From positions 3,183,010 to 3,247,009 of the forward strand of contig CBDDLA010000001.1 of NCBI GenBank assembly GCA_965230485.1: 64,000 nt of DNA, read 5' to 3'. The notes under the pieces were generated by a model. It was not told the DNA's origin. It was given only the letters and a program-made list of their open reading frames with translations, and made no database searches. Below are positions 54,965-63,846 of the stretch, piece by piece. Origin of the DNA: Putridiphycobacter sp. Its GTDB lineage: Bacteria; Bacteroidota; Bacteroidia; Flavobacteriales_D; Crocinitomicaceae. The translations under genes and the position numbers were made by a program. The stretch's first letter is position 1. The number at the start of each line of letters is the position of its first letter.

Positions 54965-57310
54965 ATGCAATTCGAACGACTAACTTTTTTATTATTTCTT
55001 CTGGTAAATTTAAGCATTGTCAAAGCACAGAACCCTAATGCGTTTTGTACTAATATGAGTCCAATTTGTACTGATGATATATTAACGTTTGATGTTTCAA
55101 ACACTGGAGGTGGCTTGGTACAGGGAAATGACTATGATTGCTTGGTGCCAACAGTAGGAACAAACTGGTTTTATTTAAAAGTTGGTAATTCAGGTAATAT
55201 AGATATGACCATTACGGCGCCTCTTGGTTTTGACTTAGATTTTGCTGTTTGGGGACCATTTGCTAATTTATCTTCTGCCCAAAGTGCCTGTGGGAATTTA
55301 GGAGTTGCACCAAATCCATTAGGCACGGTTGATTGCAGCGCTTTAGGTGGAAATACGGAATCAGTAAATATTGCTGGTGCGAATGCAGGCAATATTTATG
55401 TCATGTTAATCACTACACTTGCTACTAGTGGGCCAACAACATTTCAGCTTACGTTAGATCCATCTAGTACAGGAACAACTGATTGTTCAATTGCCTGCCC
55501 TACAAATTCAGGCACATTTTCACTTTTAAAGGGCTCCGACCCAACAGATCCTTCAACTTATACGCCAACTACATCTCCAATTTCATTATGCGCTGGCGAA
55601 GGGTTTTCCATTTTCTCAAATCAAGATTATACTTTACCAGAGGATACGATTTCTTATGCAGATGGAGGAGATAGTATTTACTCTGCCCAGTTAATGTTTT
55701 TATTATATGATACATTACCTACAAGCACTGATCCAGGGTCCGATCCGGGCTATACGGGTGTTATTATACCATCAGATTCTATCAATGATCAAAATTCATC
55801 TTTAAGTTCAATTCTAGACTCATTAAACCTTGATTGTGGTGTAGTTTACTTTGTGCCAGTTACCGGAGATGATGGAATCGGGTTGAATAATAATATGGTC
55901 GGAGTTGGCGATAATGGTCAGCTTAACTATGATTTGAGTGGTAATGGTTGTCTGGCAATGGGAGATCCAATTGAAGTAAAGTATAATTGTGAATTGACCG
56001 CAACTGGTAATTTTTCATGTGCTGGTAATAATAATTTACTGAATGTAAGCCTTGAAGGAGGAGCAATTGGGGATGTATATATTTTTACGTATCGGGATGG
56101 TATTTTAAGTGAGGATACCATTCAAACACCAGATAATATTCAGGTCTCAAATTTAATGCATTTAGATACAATCGAGTTATATTTTGAAGACGAAGCCGGG
56201 TGTTTCGATTCGTTAAAAACAAGTTTTAGTATTCCCCAATTTGTAAATGTAAATGTGGCTGATGCTAATGGCTGCATTGCTCAAGGGCAAGTCTCAGTTG
56301 AAGGAGATTCGTTGACTGGAAATGGGGGGCTTGCAAAAATTATTATGAATGGCATAGTTGAAACCAGTACTTTGCCTTTTGATACGCTAAGCGCAATTGG
56401 AGGTACCCAAGTATTAATTTCATTAGAAGATCAAGCAGGCTGTCAAAATGATACGGTTGTGACGATTGGTATTATAGGTGGCAATCAGCTTATTATTGAT
56501 ACTATTCCAGGAACTATTCTTGATGTTTCTTGTTTCGGTTACAATGATGGAACAGCCACTGTTAGCGCTTACGGAGTTGATCAGTTTGGGAACCCTAGTG
56601 GGGTACCGATTGTAAGTTACGTCTGGACTCATTCAACTGGAGTTGCAGTTGGAGGGACTGCATTGGATAGTGTTTTAATAAATGCTATTCCAGGATCATG
56701 GACCGTTACTGCTACTAGTGCAAATGGATGCACCATTACCATGACGATAGTTATCAATGAACCAGATTCCATTCAGAACAATAACTCAGTAATCGTTGAG
56801 CCAACGGTAGGACTATCGAATGGTTCAATTGATATATCAGTTATTGGAGGAACTTTGCCATATGCAACCTACACAGTTATTGACGCCAATGGTACCTCTT
56901 ACCCTGTGACTGGTTCACTTGCGACTGGTCTATCAGGAGGAACATATACTATAACTGTTGAAGACGCAAATGGATGTACTGGAACATTTACAATGACTTT
57001 GACTGAGATGCCACTTTCAATCGATAATGACTTTGATTTAAATGATATAGCTGGCATTTCTGATTTAAAATTATTTCCTTCAAGAGTTGATAATGAGTTA
57101 AATGTTAGCTTTAATCTTGCTAAACTCGGTGTTGGTTCTATAACGATCCTCGATCAAAAGGGAGCTAAAGTATTTAATTTAGAAAATACTGATTTTACTG
57201 ATGGTAAGAATCATATGGTACTTGAGCTAACCGAATTATCGTCAGGAGTTTATTTTTTAGAATTAAAAGTAAATTCGAATAGACAGCTAAGTAAGTTTAT
57301 GAAACAATAA
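54965..57310 (+). CDS. T9SS cargo surface protein with SprB-like repeats
   Basis: Signal peptide, DVSCFGYNDGTATV and SNGSIDISVIGGTLPY...TVEDANGC. CTD-like tail LFPSRVDNELNV...LSSGVYFLEL..KFMK. Confidence 0.8.
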   Translation: MQFERLTFLLFLLVNLSIVKAQNPNAFCTNMSPICTDDILTFDVSNTGGGLVQGNDYDCLVPTVGTNWFYLKVGNSGNIDMTITAPLGFDLDFAVWGPFANLSSAQSACGNLGVAPNPLGTVDCSALGGNTESVNIAGANAGNIYVMLITTLATSGPTTFQLTLDPSSTGTTDCSIACPTNSGTFSLLKGSDPTDPSTYTPTTSPISLCAGEGFSIFSNQDYTLPEDTISYADGGDSIYSAQLMFLLYDTLPTSTDPGSDPGYTGVIIPSDSINDQNSSLSSILDSLNLDCGVVYFVPVTGDDGIGLNNNMVGVGDNGQLNYDLSGNGCLAMGDPIEVKYNCELTATGNFSCAGNNNLLNVSLEGGAIGDVYIFTYRDGILSEDTIQTPDNIQVSNLMHLDTIELYFEDEAGCFDSLKTSFSIPQFVNVNVADANGCIAQGQVSVEGDSLTGNGGLAKIIMNGIVETSTLPFDTLSAIGGTQVLISLEDQAGCQNDTVVTIGIIGGNQLIIDTIPGTILDVSCFGYNDGTATVSAYGVDQFGNPSGVPIVSYVWTHSTGVAVGGTALDSVLINAIPGSWTVTATSANGCTITMTIVINEPDSIQNNNSVIVEPTVGLSNGSIDISVIGGTLPYATYTVIDANGTSYPVTGSLATGLSGGTYTITVEDANGCTGTFTMTLTEMPLSIDNDFDLNDIAGISDLKLFPSRVDNELNVSFNLAKLGVGSITILDQKGAKVFNLENTDFTDGKNHMVLELTELSSGVYFLELKVNSNRQLSKFMKQ

Positions 57311-57362: not shown

Positions 57363-59165
57363 TTAAGCTTTATTTATGGCATCAGAGAAACAATACTCAT
57401 TTTTCGAGATAGCTTGAGCCGCAATGTTTCTGCGCGCTTCAATTGTATTGTACGCAGCTACTTTCGTGAATCGTTTTAATCCCATTATCATCATGGTTAA
57501 CTCATCAGCCTCAACAAAAGACATTAACGCTGTTTTCCCTGCTTTATTAATCATATCGGCAGAGTCGAAAATAAGAGTTTGAGCAATATCAATGTAAGTT
57601 GATGTCGCTTCCTTGCCTTTTGATTTAACCATTTTCTCGACCCTCAATAAAGTTGATTCGCAAAGATAAATCGCGTTGGCCATGTCTGCTACATTCATTA
57701 GCACTTCCTGTTCCTTGGAGAGTTGCATCATTAGTTTTTGAGCGGCAGTTCCTGCTGTCATCAATAATGCTTTTTTAAAGTTTTTAATATATTTCTTTTC
57801 TTCTGCAAATAATTCATTTGAAGGATCTTCAAAGTCAGGCACACTCATTAATTCATTTGATACTGCCATTGCAGGTCCCATCAGGTCAAGTTTCCCTTTC
57901 ATGGCCTTCTTCAAAATCATATCAACGGTTAAAAGTCGATTGATTTCATTCGTTCCTTCAAAAATTCTATTAATTCTCGCATCTCGGTAGGCCCGTTCAA
58001 TTTGTGATTCAGCTGAAAAACCCATTCCACCATGAATTTGTACACCTTCATCAACACAGTAATCCAAAGCATCAGATCCGATTACTTTTAACATAGCGCA
58101 TTCTGCAGCAAATTCCTCAATACCCTTAAGAGTAGCCTGACCTTTTTCCATTCCTCCGTCCTGCAGCGCGTGAATGGCCATATCAATATCATGAGCCAAT
58201 CTATAACAGGCAGATTCTAATGAAAACGTTTTAATAATTTGTTCACCAATTTTTGAGCGGATTGCTCCATATTTTGAAATTGGTCTGCCAAACTGTTCTC
58301 TTTCATTGGCATATTTTACTGAATGATTTATCGACTCTTTACAACCTCCTAATACACCACCAGCTAATTTAATTCTGCCGATATTTAAAATATTGAGCGC
58401 AATTTTGAAGCCTCCTTCTCGTTCTCCCAATAGATTTTCTACAGGAATTTTAACATCATTGAAAAATACTTGTCGGGTAGAGGACCCTTTAATCCCCATT
58501 TTCTTTTCTTCAGGATTTAAGGTAATTCCTTCAGATTTAGCATCTACTATAAAACCGGTTAAATTTTTATCATCACCAATTTTAGCGAAAACGGTAAAAA
58601 CATCTGCAAATCCACCATTTGTAATCCACATTTTTTGACCAGTAATACTGTACGTTTTTCCATCATCTGATAGTATGGCTTTTGTTTTTCCAGAGTTAGC
58701 ATCCGACCCCGAACTTGGTTCTGTTAAGCAGTATGCGGCTTTCCATTCTCCTGAAGCTAATTTTGGAATGTATTTTTGCTTTTGTGCCTCTGTTCCATAA
58801 TACAAAATAGGTAATGTACCTATTCCTGTATGCGCACCATATGCCACCGAAAAAGAATGTCCTCTACCAGTATATTCTGTAGCTAGAAGTGAGGTAGGAA
58901 AGTCCATACCCATACCTCCAAGATCCTGTGGAACAGACATTCCTAACAGTCCTAATTCTCCTGCTTTTTCTAATAAAGAAGGCATTAAACCATCCTCTAG
59001 TGCATCAATGCGATCCAAATTAGGGATGACTTCTTGTTTAATAAAATCGAGGCACATTTGCGCAATCATGCCTTGTTCCTCCGTATAATCTTCAGGGGTA
59101 AAAATATCATTATATTCTGTATCTCTGATGATGAATTCCCCTCCTTTAATCGCTTTTTTTGCCAT
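57363..59165 (-). CDS. Acyl-CoA dehydrogenase
   Basis: AYCLTEPSSGSDA, GQKMWITNG, KMGIKGSST, LNIGRI, QIHGGMGF and RIFEGTNEI. Confidence 0.95.
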   Translation of the reverse strand: MAKKAIKGGEFIIRDTEYNDIFTPEDYTEEQGMIAQMCLDFIKQEVIPNLDRIDALEDGLMPSLLEKAGELGLLGMSVPQDLGGMGMDFPTSLLATEYTGRGHSFSVAYGAHTGIGTLPILYYGTEAQKQKYIPKLASGEWKAAYCLTEPSSGSDANSGKTKAILSDDGKTYSITGQKMWITNGGFADVFTVFAKIGDDKNLTGFIVDAKSEGITLNPEEKKMGIKGSSTRQVFFNDVKIPVENLLGEREGGFKIALNILNIGRIKLAGGVLGGCKESINHSVKYANEREQFGRPISKYGAIRSKIGEQIIKTFSLESACYRLAHDIDMAIHALQDGGMEKGQATLKGIEEFAAECAMLKVIGSDALDYCVDEGVQIHGGMGFSAESQIERAYRDARINRIFEGTNEINRLLTVDMILKKAMKGKLDLMGPAMAVSNELMSVPDFEDPSNELFAEEKKYIKNFKKALLMTAGTAAQKLMMQLSKEQEVLMNVADMANAIYLCESTLLRVEKMVKSKGKEATSTYIDIAQTLIFDSADMINKAGKTALMSFVEADELTMMIMGLKRFTKVAAYNTIEARRNIAAQAISKNEYCFSDAINKA

Positions 59166-59218: not shown

Positions 59219-59665
59219 CTAGCTATCTAATTTATAATACATCAATTTGTGTGGTCCAATTTCGGGAACATTGTATGTTTCACCTACTACTTTAAATCCC
59301 ATTTTACTGTAGAATTCGGTGGCTTCTATTCTGGCATCACACCATACAATTTCTGCTTTTTTTTGCCTTAATTTTTCAATTCCTTTTTTAATCATTTCTT
59401 TGCCTAAACCTTTTCCTCTGGCCGAAGGATGTGTAGCCATTGCTCTTAATCTATATTGAACAATCTCAGTGAAGTTGTCATTGGTTTGATTAATATATGT
59501 TGATGTTCCTAATACATTATCGTCTGCATCTAATGCACCTATATGAAACGTACTTCTTTTTAAATCTGCTTCAATTCCGCAATCCAGCAAAATTTTATGT
59601 CGCCAGAGGACTAAATTTCTTAGCGGCCATAATGTTTTACTATTTTTTATTTCTTTAATTGTCAT
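59219..59665 (-). CDS. GNAT family N-acetyltransferase
   Basis: YRLRAMAT..ARGKGLG, WCDAR and GPH.LMY. Confidence 0.88.
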   Translation of the reverse strand: MTIKEIKNSKTLWPLRNLVLWRHKILLDCGIEADLKRSTFHIGALDADDNVLGTSTYINQTNDNFTEIVQYRLRAMATHPSARGKGLGKEMIKKGIEKLRQKKAEIVWCDARIEATEFYSKMGFKVVGETYNVPEIGPHKLMYYKLDS

Positions 59666-59781: not shown

Positions 59782-60960
59782 CTACATCATTTCAATTACG
59801 CCTGCTGCCCCCTGCCCAGTTCCCACGCACATGGTTACTACACCATATTTTTGGTTTCGCCTTTTTAACTCATTCATAATTTGAACTGATAATTTTGCTC
59901 CAGTACATCCCAAAGGATGTCCTAATGCAATGGCTCCGCCATTAACGTTAACAATTTCTGGATTGATACCGGTTTCTTTAATTACTGCCAAAGATTGTGA
60001 GGCAAAGGCCTCATTCAATTCGAATAAATCAATATCATTTAATTTTAACCCAGCCATTTCTACTGCACCTGGAATAGCATCTACAGGTCCAATTCCCATG
60101 ATTCTTGGTGGAACACCTACAACTTTATAGGAAACGAGTCTTGCTATAGGCTCAAGGTTTAATTCTTTTACTTTCTCTTCAGACATCATAAGGACAAAAG
60201 CAGCTCCATCAGACATTTGACTTGAATTACCAGCTGTTACAGAACCTCCATTTTGAAATACTGGGCGAAGTTTTGCTAGCGCTTCAATTGAAGTACCTAG
60301 TCTTGGACCTTCATCAGTATCCACAATATTGGTTTTCTCAGCTCGCTTTCCATCTTTATCTAAGTATACCTCATTAACTGAAATTGGTACAATATCATCT
60401 TTAAACTTACCCTCCTTAATGGCATTCAAAGCTTTCATGTGAGAGTTAAAGGCAAATTCATCTTGTTGCTCACGAGTAACCTTATACTTTGTGGCAACTT
60501 CTTCAGCCGTATTGCCCATTCCCCAATAGTAGTCGGCATGTTCTTTTGATACCCTTGCATTTGGGACAACTCGCCAACCTCCCATTGCTATAGCAGACAT
60601 TGATTCTGTTCCACCTGCAATAATAATGTCTGCTAAGCCAGATTCAATTTTAGCTTTCGCAATGGCCATAGTTTCTAATCCAGAAGAGCAATAGCGATTC
60701 ACTGTCATGCCAGGTACTTTATTCGTATTTAGTCCCATTAAAGAAATGAATCTCCCAACATTTAGGCCTTGTTCCGCTTCTGGCATAGCATTACCAACTA
60801 TCAAATCATCAATTAATTCTTGGTCTAATTCAGGTACTTCTGACAAAAGGTGCTTGATCACATCTGCTGCTAAATCATCTGGTCTGCTAAATCTAAATCC
60901 ACCACGGCTTGCTTTTCCAACCGCAGTTCTGTATGCTTTTACAATATATGCTGTTTTCAT
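59782..60960 (-). CDS. fadA: Acetyl-CoA C-acyltransferase (thiolase)
   Basis: NRYCSSG, NEAFA, GHPLGCTG and MCVGTG. Confidence 0.94.
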   Translation of the reverse strand: MKTAYIVKAYRTAVGKASRGGFRFSRPDDLAADVIKHLLSEVPELDQELIDDLIVGNAMPEAEQGLNVGRFISLMGLNTNKVPGMTVNRYCSSGLETMAIAKAKIESGLADIIIAGGTESMSAIAMGGWRVVPNARVSKEHADYYWGMGNTAEEVATKYKVTREQQDEFAFNSHMKALNAIKEGKFKDDIVPISVNEVYLDKDGKRAEKTNIVDTDEGPRLGTSIEALAKLRPVFQNGGSVTAGNSSQMSDGAAFVLMMSEEKVKELNLEPIARLVSYKVVGVPPRIMGIGPVDAIPGAVEMAGLKLNDIDLFELNEAFASQSLAVIKETGINPEIVNVNGGAIALGHPLGCTGAKLSVQIMNELKRRNQKYGVVTMCVGTGQGAAGVIEMM

Positions 60961-60964
60961 GTTT

Positions 60965-61008
60965 TAGATGCTAGAACGTTTCGCAGATAGATGCTTGACG
61001 CTAGACTT
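60965..61008 (+). repeat. Heptamer array flanking the four-helix-bundle gene (left arm)
   Basis: TAGATGC TAGAACG TTTCGCAGA TAGATGC TTGACGC TAGACTT. Confidence 0.75.
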
Positions 61009-61018
61009 TTTTATTTTA

Positions 61019-61378
61019 TTAACTTTTTGATTGAATAGACATTATAAATCCATTAATCATTTTTTGTATCTCTAATATTTTCGTTGTTAATTCCTCAATT
61101 ATACTGTTTTCAAAATTTAAGACCTTCTTGGATATTAAAAGTTGAGTTTCCAGTTCAAAAGCTGATCCAAGTGCAATCTGTAAAAATCGGGTAAAATCTT
61201 TATTTGATGATCTACTTGATCCTTCAGCTATATTCGACGGAACTGAAACAGCACATCTTCTAATCTGACTTATTAATCCAAACTTTTCAGCATCTGGAAA
61301 GCGTTTAGTCAATTCATAGACCTCCACGGAAAAATCAATTGATTTTTTCCAAATATTTAACTCTTTAAAATTATGCAT
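61019..61378 (-). CDS. Four helix bundle protein (23S rRNA IVS-encoded / Avd-like family)
   Basis: L.IWKKS, FP..EKFGLISQIRR.AVSVPSNIAEG, FL.IALGSAFELETQL. Confidence 0.93.
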   Translation of the reverse strand: MHNFKELNIWKKSIDFSVEVYELTKRFPDAEKFGLISQIRRCAVSVPSNIAEGSSRSSNKDFTRFLQIALGSAFELETQLLISKKVLNFENSIIEELTTKILEIQKMINGFIMSIQSKS

Positions 61379-61403
61379 TCAATTGTATTTAAAATTTGTC
61401 TTT

Positions 61404-61447
61404 AGTCTAGTATCTAGTAGCGAAGCGCTCTTCAATCTAATATCTAG
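61404..61447 (-). repeat. Heptamer array flanking the four-helix-bundle gene (right arm, inverted)
   Basis: Plus strand reads AGTCTAG TATCTAG TA GCGAAGCG CTCTTCAA TCTAA TATCTAG. Confidence 0.75.
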
Positions 61448-63846
61448 TTCCTCAACACCTTCCCCTTTGTCACAATACTTTGAATTCTTTCCAGTGTTTT
61501 TTTCTTAGTGCATAAATCAAGAAATGCTTTGCGTTCTAAGTCCAAAAGGTACTGTTCATCTACTTGTTGTAACTCAGATAGGTCGCCTCCTGATAATACA
61601 AAACCTAATTTTTCTGAGATGTATTTATCATGTTCTGAGATGTAGTTGCCATGTTCCATAGTATCAGCCCCCACGTAAACAATTCCTAAACCTTCTTGCC
61701 CCAGAACTGTGATGTCTTTTGATTTGGCTGGTTGACTATATCCTGCATTATATAAGTTTAAACAGGCTTCTTTTGCCCTGGTGAGTTGATAGTCTCTATC
61801 TATTACTACTTCATCAATCCCTTTCCTTAAGTAACCTAAATCAAAGGCTTCATAAGCTGAAGTGGATACTTTGGCTTGGCCTATTGTTAAAAAAGCGTCT
61901 CGGAATCTATTAATTCTAACATCCCCTTCAGAAAGTTCATCAGATAAACGTTTTGCGAACTCTTTGCTACCACCCCCACCTGGAATTAAGCCGACTCCAA
62001 ATTCAACCAATCCCATATATAATTCAGAATGGGCAATTACTTTATCTGCATGCATTGACATTTCACAACCACCACCTAAGGCCATATTATGCGGTGCCAC
62101 AATCACTGGGCAAGCAGAGTAGCGAATCCGCATCATGGTATCTTGAAATTGTTTAATCGCAAAATTCAATTCATCATATTCTTGCTCAACGGCCATCATA
62201 AAAATCAGTCCAACATTGGCACCAGCTGAAAAGTTTTGACCAGTATTTGAAATCACTAGCCCTTTATACTCAGATTCAGCCAAATCAATTCCTTTATTGA
62301 TTCCCTGTAAAACACCACCACCAATGGTATTCATTTTAGTGTGAAATTCTAGATTTAGAATGCCGTCTCCTAAATCAATTAAATGACAATCGTTATTTTT
62401 CCAAACTGTATTTCCTTCTTTTAAATTATCTAAGAATAATAAATCTTCGGTGCCAGGAATAGGCAAATATTGTTTGCTTTTAATATCATAAAAATGCTTT
62501 TGACCATTTTCAATTTTATAAAAACTTTTAATGCCAGAAGCTAACATTTCATCAACCCATTTTGCATAAGGTTTTCTACTTGCTTTTATTAGCGCTAAAG
62601 ACTTTTCAAGTCCAACGGCATCCCACGACTCAAATGGACCTAGTTCCCACCCAAAACCAGCACGCATAGCGTCATCAATTTTATATAAATCGTCCGTTAT
62701 TTCAGGAATTCTATTAGAAACGTAGGCAAAAATACCATTAAACGATTTTTGATAAAATTCACCAGCTTTACCCTCTGAATAATAGAGGACTTTGGTTCGT
62801 TCTGCCAAATTATCAATGGTTTTGGTTAATGCAAAAACAGGAAAATTAGCTTTTGGTTGGGCTTCATATTCCATTGTTTTTAGATTAAGAGAAAGAATTG
62901 ACTTTTTGCCATCAACGACTTCCTTTTTATAAAAACCTTGCCCAGACTTAGACCCTAACCAGTTATTTTCAACCAATTTTTGAACATATTCAGTCAATTG
63001 AAAGCTTTCTTTTTCTTCATCTTTCGGACAGTTTTCCCTTACGCCATTGGCCACATGCACTAAGGTATCTAAGCCCACAACATCACAAGTTCTGAACGTA
63101 GCCGATTTTGGTCGACCCAAAACAGGTCCAGTCAGTTTATCAACTTCTGAAACGGTTAAATCCATTTCTTCAACTGTGTGAAATAGACTCATGATTGAGT
63201 AGACCCCTATACGGTTTGCAATAAAAGCAGGTGTATCCTTACATAACACAGTTTTTTTGCCTAAAAAACGAGCACCATAGTGCATGAAGAAATCAATAAT
63301 TTCAGGTTTTGTTTTAGGTGATGGAATAATCTCCAGCAACCTTAAATATCGAGGAGGGTTAAAAAAATGAGTTCCACAAAAATGTGCTTGGAAATCCTCA
63401 CTTTTATCTTTCAGCATCATATGAATAGGAATGCCTGAAGTATTTGAAGTAACTAATGTCCCAGGAGTCCGATATTTATCAACTTTGTCTAAAATAAGGT
63501 GCTTAATGTCTAAGCGTTCTACCACCACTTCAATAACCCAATCGCAGTCCTTAATTTTTTCAAAATCATCATCAAAGTTACCTGTAACAATCCTTTTCGA
63601 AAATTCCTTTTTATAAATGGGTGAGGGTTTAGATTTAATCGCATTTGTAAAGTGATGATTAACGATACTATTTCTGACAGAAGCATCTTCTAAAGTCAAA
63701 CCCTTTGCTTTTTGTGTATCATTTAATTCTTGAGGTGCCATGTCAAGCAGTAGGACTTCGAGTCCGATATTCGCAAAATGACATGCAATGGCAGATCCCA
63801 TGACACCCGACCCTAAAACTGCAACTTTTTTAATATTCCTATTCAT
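61444..63846 (-). CDS. fadB: 3-hydroxyacyl-CoA dehydrogenase / enoyl-CoA hydratase family protein
   Basis: GSGVMG, EVVVERL, SNTSG, HFFNPPRY, and the hydratase domain FSAGAN, LGGGCE, EFGVGLIPGGGG. Confidence 0.9.
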   Translation of the reverse strand: MNRNIKKVAVLGSGVMGSAIACHFANIGLEVLLLDMAPQELNDTQKAKGLTLEDASVRNSIVNHHFTNAIKSKPSPIYKKEFSKRIVTGNFDDDFEKIKDCDWVIEVVVERLDIKHLILDKVDKYRTPGTLVTSNTSGIPIHMMLKDKSEDFQAHFCGTHFFNPPRYLRLLEIIPSPKTKPEIIDFFMHYGARFLGKKTVLCKDTPAFIANRIGVYSIMSLFHTVEEMDLTVSEVDKLTGPVLGRPKSATFRTCDVVGLDTLVHVANGVRENCPKDEEKESFQLTEYVQKLVENNWLGSKSGQGFYKKEVVDGKKSILSLNLKTMEYEAQPKANFPVFALTKTIDNLAERTKVLYYSEGKAGEFYQKSFNGIFAYVSNRIPEITDDLYKIDDAMRAGFGWELGPFESWDAVGLEKSLALIKASRKPYAKWVDEMLASGIKSFYKIENGQKHFYDIKSKQYLPIPGTEDLLFLDNLKEGNTVWKNNDCHLIDLGDGILNLEFHTKMNTIGGGVLQGINKGIDLAESEYKGLVISNTGQNFSAGANVGLIFMMAVEQEYDELNFAIKQFQDTMMRIRYSACPVIVAPHNMALGGGCEMSMHADKVIAHSELYMGLVEFGVGLIPGGGGSKEFAKRLSDELSEGDVRINRFRDAFLTIGQAKVSTSAYEAFDLGYLRKGIDEVVIDRDYQLTRAKEACLNLYNAGYSQPAKSKDITVLGQEGLGIVYVGADTMEHGNYISEHDKYISEKLGFVLSGGDLSELQQVDEQYLLDLERKAFLDLCTKKKTLERIQSIVTKGKVLRN

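Follow-up and report, generated by a model that had tools for sequence, protein, structure and literature searches.

A four-helix-bundle gene between inverted 7-nt arrays at the fadB–fadA junction of Putridiphycobacter sp., a cassette resembling ORF-bearing rRNA intervening sequences

The cassette between fadB and fadA

We analyzed a stretch of 64,000 nucleotides from Putridiphycobacter sp. (assembly GCA_965230485.1, contig CBDDLA010000001.1, positions 3,183,010 to 3,247,009), hereafter the window, in which a gene for a four-helix-bundle (4HB) protein lies between a fadB-like and a fadA-like gene. The 4HB gene is enclosed by two arrays of 7-nt units in inverted orientation; the 5′ array, the gene, which belongs to the PF05635 family, and the 3′ array make up a cassette of approximately 486 bp that is the entire fadB–fadA intercistronic space (Table 1). 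The inverted arrays had been described in a first-pass annotation of the window, and the sequence was as described there, including the end of the left arm 4 nt before the fadA ATG and the extension of the cassette over the whole junction. The annotation had also stated that no transposase is present, and the list of open reading frames (ORFs) contained no transposase-like ORF within the cassette. The minus strand is the coding strand for every gene of the fad region. No terminator-like site was found on the operon strand, and a sigma-70 promoter scan remained at chance level, the sigma-70 model being ill-suited to Bacteroidota. An Rfam scan of the cassette region matched no rRNA or other family, and the cassette is located between protein genes, not in helix 25 or 45 of 23S rRNA as are the rRNA intervening sequences (IVSs).

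Read in the mRNA sense, the upstream array consists of TAGATAT, TAGATTG, AAGAGCG, CTTCGCTAC, TAGATAC, TAGACTA and AAGACAA, and the downstream array of GTCTAGC, GTCAAGC, ATCTATC, TGCGAAAC, GTTCTAGC and ATCTA(A). Four nucleotides, AAAC, separate the end of the downstream array (60965) from the fadA ATG. The opening triplet of the upstream array is the fadB stop codon TAG (61446–61444), as the annotation had proposed for its outermost unit, except that base 61447 belongs to the last sense codon, AAC. All three reading frames are closed by stops in the first 14 nt of this arm.

The predicted RNA duplex between the two flanks had an energy of −33.1 kcal/mol, compared with −16.5 ± 3.5 kcal/mol for 1000 dinucleotide-preserving shuffles (z −4.75; 0/1000 as low), and the score of the DNA inverted-repeat alignment was 35, compared with 16.9 ± 3.1 for the shuffles (0/1000 as high). 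When folded in a 531-nt context, the arms formed 37 long-range pairs with a mean probability of 0.95, in which 61398–61440 paired with 60964–61006. The stem appeared in both the minimum free energy (MFE) fold and the centroid fold of a 501-nt stretch; hence the folding proposed by the annotation did return a stem, and shuffled flanks paired worse. GCGAAGCG forms the G+C-rich core of this repeat, where it pairs with GCGAAACG on the opposite side, and is no separate mini-hairpin feature. The GCGAARCG core that had been pointed out before is real, but it is merely the G+C-rich middle of the repeat. We rejected GCGAAGC as a special DNA mini-hairpin, as this motif is present in one arm only and pairs with the opposite arm. 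An extra 6-bp helix (probability 0.84–0.90) was predicted between the last fadB codons (61453–61458) and the first fadA codons (60948–60953) and may be due to chance.

The 4HB protein matched PF05635 with 134.9 bits (E 1.5e-39; cut-off 33.8 bits) and TIGR02436, "four helix bundle protein", with 131 bits (cut-off 24). Its nearest solved relative was XCC0516 (PDB 2GSC, E 2.7e-22). The solved relatives 2GSC and 2RLD have five chains per entry, and by similarity to them the protein is probably a four-helix-bundle homopentamer. It is basic, with an isoelectric point of 8.8. Alignment of 86 homologues indicated 24 positions conserved at 90% or more in the N-terminal two thirds, and the 4HB protein has every residue conserved at this level (Q38, R41, S45, PSNIAEG47–53, R56, GS71–72, E75 and TQ78–79). 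The motif (G)xxRxxxSxxxNxxE was found as R41-S45-N49-E52, at least 99% conserved among the 86 homologues; the G three residues before R41 in the published motif is Q in the 4HB protein. The C-terminal third (residues ~85–119, the last helix, window 61019–61120) was hypervariable across the same homologues, and this helix is a candidate specificity determinant. The ratio of nonsynonymous to synonymous divergence (dN/dS) was approximately 0.02–0.2 across cassette comparisons, indicating purifying selection on the protein. No family of the PADLOC defence-protein models was matched at E ≤ 0.01.

The only other PF05635-like gene of the genome (G000:C1:1907464–1907760, outside the window; 136 aa, 34.8 bits) is solitary, flanked by terminator hairpins of the ordinary kind, and lacks heptamer arms. 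A second copy with the arms of the fad-junction cassette was not found in the genome, and a whole-genome Tandem Repeats Finder scan for heptamer arrays at a low threshold gave noise only and no further armed elements.

Table 1. Features of the fad region in the window
Feature	Positions	Strand	Basis
fadB-like gene, 3-hydroxyacyl-CoA dehydrogenase/enoyl-CoA hydratase, 800 aa	61444-63846	minus	ORF list; Pfam 3HCDH_N, 3HCDH, ECH_1
5′ (upstream) arm, seven ~7-nt units	61396-61446	minus	sequence; pair probabilities
G+C-rich core of 5′ arm, sense AGAGCGCTTCGC, pairs with GCGAAACGTTCT of 3′ arm	61420-61431	minus	fold
A/T-rich spacer from 5′ arm to 4HB start codon, within the hairpin loop	61379-61395	minus	sequence, fold
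4HB gene, 119 aa, PF05635/TIGR02436 ("23S rRNA intervening sequence protein", S23p)	61019-61378	minus	Pfam E 1.5e-39
A-rich spacer 3′ of 4HB stop codon, TAAAATAAAAAA	61007-61018	minus	sequence, fold
3′ (downstream) arm, complementary to 5′ arm	60964-61006	minus	sequence, fold
fadA-like thiolase gene, 392 aa, ATG 60960-60958	59782-60960	minus	ORF list, Pfam
GNAT acetyltransferase gene	59219-59665	minus	ORF list, Pfam
Acyl-CoA dehydrogenase (ACAD) gene	57363-59165	minus	ORF list, Pfam

Filled, empty and exchanged junctions among relatives

Forty relatives were examined, and fadB and fadA were side by side in 27 loci. The junction was filled with a 4HB cassette in 12 of them (gaps 416–627 nt), as in the window locus, and was empty in 14 (gaps 2–113 nt, e.g. 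taaTCatg); a single junction (L103, relative G036; gap 698 nt) held a different gene. The C-terminus of fadB (..GK[VI]LRN*) and the N-terminus of fadA were identical between filled and empty sites. The search for empty sites at orthologous junctions, which the first-pass annotation had proposed, thus showed that relatives do not all carry the cassette. By eye, the upstream flank of all 12 filled relatives starts at the fadB stop and passes into a heptamer array only a few nucleotides further on; L100 is an exception, in which the longest-ORF call leaves only 9 nt upstream. On the flanking-gene tree, the filled or empty state required at least eight changes, at least four of them forced by well-supported branches, and it was clustered no more than shuffled labels. 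The number of PF05635 copies per genome among the relatives ranged from 0 to 9, and a genome of the same genus (G005, 95% complete) had none. The arms at junctions of the same genus were unrelated: TAGATAT in the window, TAGTTAT in G001, G008 and G004, GAGTCAT/AGACTAA in G007, and GAGATGA in G006. By their arms, the same-genus junction cassettes are of at least three types.

The history of the cassette was compared with that of its flanking genes in 12 taxa, and this comparison was decisive. The 4HB alignment rejected the flanking-gene topology (log-likelihood difference 85; p of the approximately unbiased test, p-AU, 1.4e-4), and the flanking-gene alignment rejected the 4HB topology (p-AU 3e-43). 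Two pairs of relatives illustrated opposite situations. Between G004 and G007 (L084/L085), fadA was 95% identical in amino acids and flank DNA 84–86% identical, while the 4HB protein was 54% and cassette DNA 58% identical; dN and dS were 0.39 and ~2 for the 4HB gene, compared with 0.04 and 1.0–1.1 for the flanks. Between G001 and G008 (L082/L083), fadA was 96% and flank DNA 82–83% identical, and both the 4HB protein and cassette DNA were 89% identical; dN and dS were 0.05 and 0.52 for the 4HB gene, compared with 0.02–0.03 and 1.6–2.5 for the flanks. Identity in L082/L083 starts rising at the cassette boundary. The synonymous divergence of cassette and flanks was accordingly discordant in both directions. 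A discrete exchangeable cassette is defined by orthologous sites that are either filled or empty, by flanks that remain unchanged, and by a history uncoupled from these flanks, and all of them were observed here. At the fadB–fadA junction, the cassette is kept, precisely lost, or replaced whole among close relatives.

The closest homologues of the window protein, searched for among 5.8 billion proteins, told of residence at this site. The eight closest (83, 83, 75, 74, 73, 72, 71 and 68% identity) were all encoded at the fadB–fadA junction; the context (MarR-)fadB-4HB-fadA-GNAT(-ACAD) was seen on the five contigs long enough to show neighbours, and the three short contigs reached no further than the end of fadB, the start of fadA, or both. 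TAGAT-type units were common to the window cassette and all eight, and an interrupted stem of 28–42 bp was kept in 9/9. The G+C core (CGCTGCGC / GCGAAGCG) was also present in L111, L115, L117 and L119, and L116 retained it in the downstream arm; between L111 and L115, an A-T to T-A double change in the core preserved the pair. The downstream arm was 72–88% identical between the window and L111, L115, L117 and L119 and 66–88% identical over all pairs among the five, compared with 23–63% in the ORF and 36–51% in fadA for fourfold-degenerate third positions. This comparison rests on the downstream arm, and upstream-arm figures were not used, as the upstream arrays are at variable distance from the ATG. 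Conservation of the downstream arm above neutral sites indicated that the arms are constrained in sequence, not merely in complementarity. Purifying selection thus acts on the protein as well as on the downstream arm, which marks the cassette as functional and not as a decaying one.

The cassette lineage of the window is a long-term resident of a MarR-fadB-4HB-fadA-GNAT-ACAD operon. The overall picture is one of long residence in the operon across Bacteroidota, in which the cassette was often lost precisely and was occasionally replaced by one of another lineage. The "mobile unit" of the first-pass annotation was right in so far as the cassette is discrete and is absent or replaced in relatives; on the other side, its lineage is long resident, and no mobility enzyme or target duplication accompanied it.

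Two of the junctions showed further features. The occupant of L103 is a 161-aa ORF of the DUF6036/DUF2204 nucleotidyltransferase type (AbiEii-like, weak). What remains of a downstream heptamer arm, CTCAAAT CTAACAT CTCAAAT CTAAAT, is still found before the fadA ATG, as if the cargo of an old cassette had been exchanged. The 113-nt "empty" gap of L108 (relative G027) has three TTGAATA units in direct orientation as well as a short hairpin, ATCCATG-AAA-CATGGAT; a cassette may have been lost there with only its arms left behind.

Array layout across the family and copying as a unit

The first-pass annotation had proposed testing the flanks of homologous genes elsewhere, and these did carry inverted 7-nt arrays. 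We obtained 74 homologous cassettes from 80 loci of genome contigs; most were from Bacteroidota, and others were from Acidobacteriota, Chloroflexota, Kiritimatiellota, Nitrospirota, Pseudomonadota, Bacillota and the candidate phyla radiation (CPR). When the 90 nt upstream were paired with the 90 nt downstream, the median z of the flank duplex was −2.95 for the 74 cassettes, compared with −0.3 for 110 control ORFs from the same loci (Mann-Whitney p 8e-15). The best repeat lag was 7 nt in 101/148 flanks and 8 nt in 25 more, and the lag-7 autocorrelation was 0.42–0.44 in cassette flanks compared with 0.32 in controls. Across the family, the 5′ arm was G-rich and the 3′ arm C-rich. The repeat unit differed between cassettes (GAGATGT, TTGGATT, AAGGAAC, GTTTCGA, GCTAGCG and others), and its complement was always found on the opposite side. 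Stops in all three frames were present in the 5′ arm of 49% of cassettes, compared with 28 ± 5% of composition-matched shuffles and 18% of controls, TAG being the enriched stop; when a 7-nt unit contains a stop triplet, three such units suffice to close every frame. The layout of a gene between inverted arrays is a family-wide trait and is not peculiar to the copy in the window.

Copying of arms and ORF together was observed on an uncultured Bacteroidales contig (L019, L019:2950-5900), where two paralogous cassettes 2.4 kb apart sit at two different junctions of one operon. Their similarity is limited to the arms plus the ORF, and the flanks are unrelated. The two ORFs share 85% of nucleotides and 95% of amino acids (dN/dS 0.017, dS 1.45), and the two copies have both kept GAATACA as their unit and agree fully over the 17 nt that follow the stop codon. 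This pair is direct evidence that arms and ORF can be copied as a unit. From the protein sequences alone, we take the operon to be a methylmalonyl-CoA mutase operon; the 642-aa gene between the cassettes looks like the small subunit of this enzyme. A further example of a second junction was found in relative G034 (L106), in which another 4HB cassette lies 0–520 nt downstream of the fadA stop and fills the fadA–acyl-CoA dehydrogenase junction, where the window carries the GNAT gene. Its arms differ from those at the fadB–fadA junction and are of the AGACA type (TAGACAA/AAGACAT ... TTGTCTT).

A proposed mechanism, rival explanations and known systems

The closest known parallel is the IVS of the Coxiella burnetii 23S rRNA (helix 45), which has an S23p ORF, a stem and three upstream GACAGAT heptamers, the first of which is the site of RNase III cleavage (PMC4990558). 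ORF-bearing 23S rRNA IVSs in Leptospira, Xanthomonas and Brucella are mentioned by Warrier et al. 2016 (PMC4990558), with Ralph & McClelland 1993 cited therein. The rRNA IVSs share with the fad-junction cassette the S23p/PF05635 protein family, an element size of ~430–490 nt with the ORF in the loop of a long inverted-repeat stem, tandem heptamers upstream of the ORF (GACAGAT x3 in Coxiella), and a sporadic distribution with no recognised mobility gene, for which a selfish or mobile origin has been proposed. They differ in host site, which is an rRNA helix there and an mRNA operon junction, from stop to start codon, here. Furthermore, the Coxiella ORF was reported to be decaying and untranslated (PMC4990558), whereas the fad-junction ORF is under purifying selection, and RNase III excision was shown for the Coxiella IVS, whereas for the fad-junction cassette it is proposed by analogy. 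We rate the cassette as a variant of the ORF-bearing rRNA intervening sequence.

The best explanation, to which we attach moderate confidence, is that an IVS-type 4HB cassette at an operon junction is co-transcribed, its arms pair, and RNase III cuts the transcript. The cassette would be transcribed with the fad operon, and its single-stranded arms would close into an interrupted duplex of 31–36 bp that begins at the stop codon of fadB and ends 4 nt short of the fadA start. RNase III would then cut this duplex as in the Coxiella 23S IVS, dividing the transcript into separate fadB, 4HB and fadA pieces and setting free a 4HB message capped by the stem, while the stop-rich 7-nt arrays would end incoming translation in any frame. 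RNase III needs roughly two helical turns, and the predicted duplex of 31–36 pairs exceeds this length. The genome encodes one rnc (RNase III) gene. Co-transcription, the stem and RNase III processing are favoured because of the Coxiella IVS, the presence of rnc, the lack of a terminator on the operon strand and the duplex length; processing of the cassette transcript by RNase III is plausible by this analogy. Exchange as a unit might proceed by recombination through the conserved flanking genes or by a cassette-specific process.

Several observations weigh against this reading. The arm stem in the window is broken by seven small internal loops. Typing of arm mismatches for selection on the sense RNA gave 47 sense-type G:U mismatches, 69 antisense-type ones and 165 transversions, and the antisense duplex was equal or slightly better in energy than the sense duplex over the 74 cassettes (mean 2.5 kcal/mol, p 0.055). 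As the arrays permit several pairing registers, these two sense-strand tests neither support nor exclude an RNA-specific constraint. The monophyly of the six same-genus junction copies was not rejected (p-AU 0.19; 86-protein family tree), which is a weak test because the 4HB protein is too short. The deeper clusters of the 4HB tree mirror host clades, so that vertical descent and loss may account for much of the history. Finally, neither a mobility enzyme nor a target-site duplication was seen at the cassette boundaries.

Some of these points would suit a simpler account, in which the 4HB gene is a vertically inherited, fast-evolving accessory of the Bacteroidota fad operon that has often been deleted, the arms are a regulatory or stabilising hairpin of the host, like the repetitive extragenic palindromic (REP) elements found between cistrons, and nothing moved horizontally. 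Besides the unrejected monophyly and the host clades, such an account fits the location of all eight closest homologues at the fadB–fadA junction and the clustering of junction copies in the 4HB family tree (12 label changes, compared with 21 for shuffled labels). We nevertheless consider it unlikely, since the topologies of 4HB and flanking genes conflict strongly; cassettes are 89% or 54% identical where fadA is 95–96% identical in amino acids; the dS of the cassette is 3–5 times below that of the flanks in one pair and about twice above it in another; and the layout recurs in unrelated operons, with a duplicate at a second junction in the case of L019.

A DNA-level role, or a role of the arrays as binding sites for a sequence-specific factor, is a serious rival. 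In the form of a DNA-level mobile element, the arms would be recognition or recombination sites or single-stranded DNA hairpins, the 4HB pentamer would be the element's own sequence-specific factor, serving its copying, targeting or maintenance, and the RNA stem would be a by-product. We know of no nuclease or recombinase fold or motif in the PF05635 family, and there is one copy per arm type per genome, without bursts and without a visible target duplication. The Coxiella protein appears not to be made, yet its IVS persists (PMC4990558). The mobile form is quite improbable in view of these points, even though it would agree with the absent sense-strand wobble signature, with a downstream arm conserved in sequence and not in complementarity alone (L019 keeps GAATACA at the ORF dS given above), with boundaries exactly at the arms, with a hypervariable C-terminal helix on an invariant core, and with the five chains per entry of the solved relatives. 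That the flank complementarity of the window copy is a functionless chance or low-complexity likeness in an A+T-rich spacer is scarcely credible: the arms are imperfect, with 31 pairs in seven short helices and transversion mismatches, but 0/1000 dinucleotide shuffles reached the observed score, orthologous arms are conserved above neutral sites, and the trait is family-wide.

Small repeated elements were also compared. MITEs (miniature inverted-repeat transposable elements) and the hairpins of REP elements and bacterial interspersed mosaic elements (BIMEs) are likewise small, with inverted termini, no transposase, hairpin potential and locations between co-transcribed genes. They differ in that the 4HB cassette holds a conserved, selected protein gene, and in that they are multi-copy with shared termini, whereas the cassette is single-copy with private arms and no target duplication was seen. 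A MITE or other non-autonomous transposon was rejected: the genome has only one armed copy, there is no duplication at the boundaries, and cassettes sharing a genome or an operon differ in their arms. The relation to the accessory protein Avd of diversity-generating retroelements (DGRs), which the first-pass annotation had brought in, was overstated. The 4HB protein shares with bAvd distant sequence similarity, the four-helix-bundle fold and a basic character, but its scores were below the cut-offs (25.9 vs 80 bits for NF033474 and 22.3 vs 40 for PF22296), and no RVT_1 match for a reverse transcriptase was found in the whole genome. Therefore, we concluded that the 4HB gene is not a DGR component; the pair of template and variable repeats of DGRs is also absent at the cassette.

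Intergenic heptamer arrays have been reported as GGGAATC in Xanthomonas and GGGGA(C/T)T in Nostoc (Rehm et al. 2015, PMC4692102), and heptanucleotide elements in Geobacter metallireducens (Aklujkar et al. 2009, PMC2700814). Like the arms described here, they consist of tandem 7-nt units, typically about four per array, with 70–75 convergent (inverted) pairs in Xanthomonas; a potential for stem-loops or cruciforms was noted. The two papers name no adjoining gene family and consider G-quadruplex or regulator-site functions. Unlike the published arrays, those of PF05635 cassettes bracket a gene, and their unit varies by cassette. Genes annotated as 23S_rRNA_IVP have also been found within cas operons and interpreted as possibly cas-associated (Zhang et al. 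2013, PMC3936711). In common with the present case, PF05635 members are wedged there in unrelated operons, and the motif RxxxSxxxNxxE corresponds to R41..S45..N49..E52 of the 4HB protein; flanking arrays are not described in that paper (PMC3936711). Our literature search yielded no paper that ties PF05635 genes to flanking inverted heptamer arrays outside rRNA.

More tentatively, a PF05635 pentamer might recognise its own 7-nt arrays, each protomer binding one unit and the hypervariable C-terminal helix conferring specificity. The cassette would then be self-recognising and suited to any transcribed junction, the 23S rRNA IVSs would be its rRNA-borne subset, and it would have left the intergenic heptamers of Xanthomonas, Nostoc and Geobacter as footprints. 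Protein bound to the purine-rich 5′ arm could compete with the stem, setting RNase III cleavage and access to the downstream start. Such reading would be comparable to that of the TRAP ring, which reads spaced (G/U)AG triplets.

The rRNA IVSs with their S23p ORFs have been without explanation since 1993, as have the over-represented intergenic heptamers of several phyla, and the class is widespread. If both go back to a single gene-plus-array module that also colonises ordinary operons, these puzzles would merge into one testable system, comprising a conserved pentameric protein, a periodic nucleic-acid ligand, and entry into and exit from operon junctions that spare the neighbouring reading frames. 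The fad junction is a natural experiment in this respect, with empty sites, filled sites or unrelated cassettes within one genus and tightly matched flanks, and it permits arm boundaries, selection and exchange to be measured. Cassettes of this kind also part tightly coupled cistrons (taaTCatg in empty relatives) by approximately 480 nt and are worth recognising in operon annotation.

Beyond the fad genes, the window encodes a 781-aa secreted-looking protein on the plus strand (54965–57310), with a signal-like N-terminus and a C-terminal stretch similar to a type IX secretion sorting domain; this protein has no relation to the cassette.

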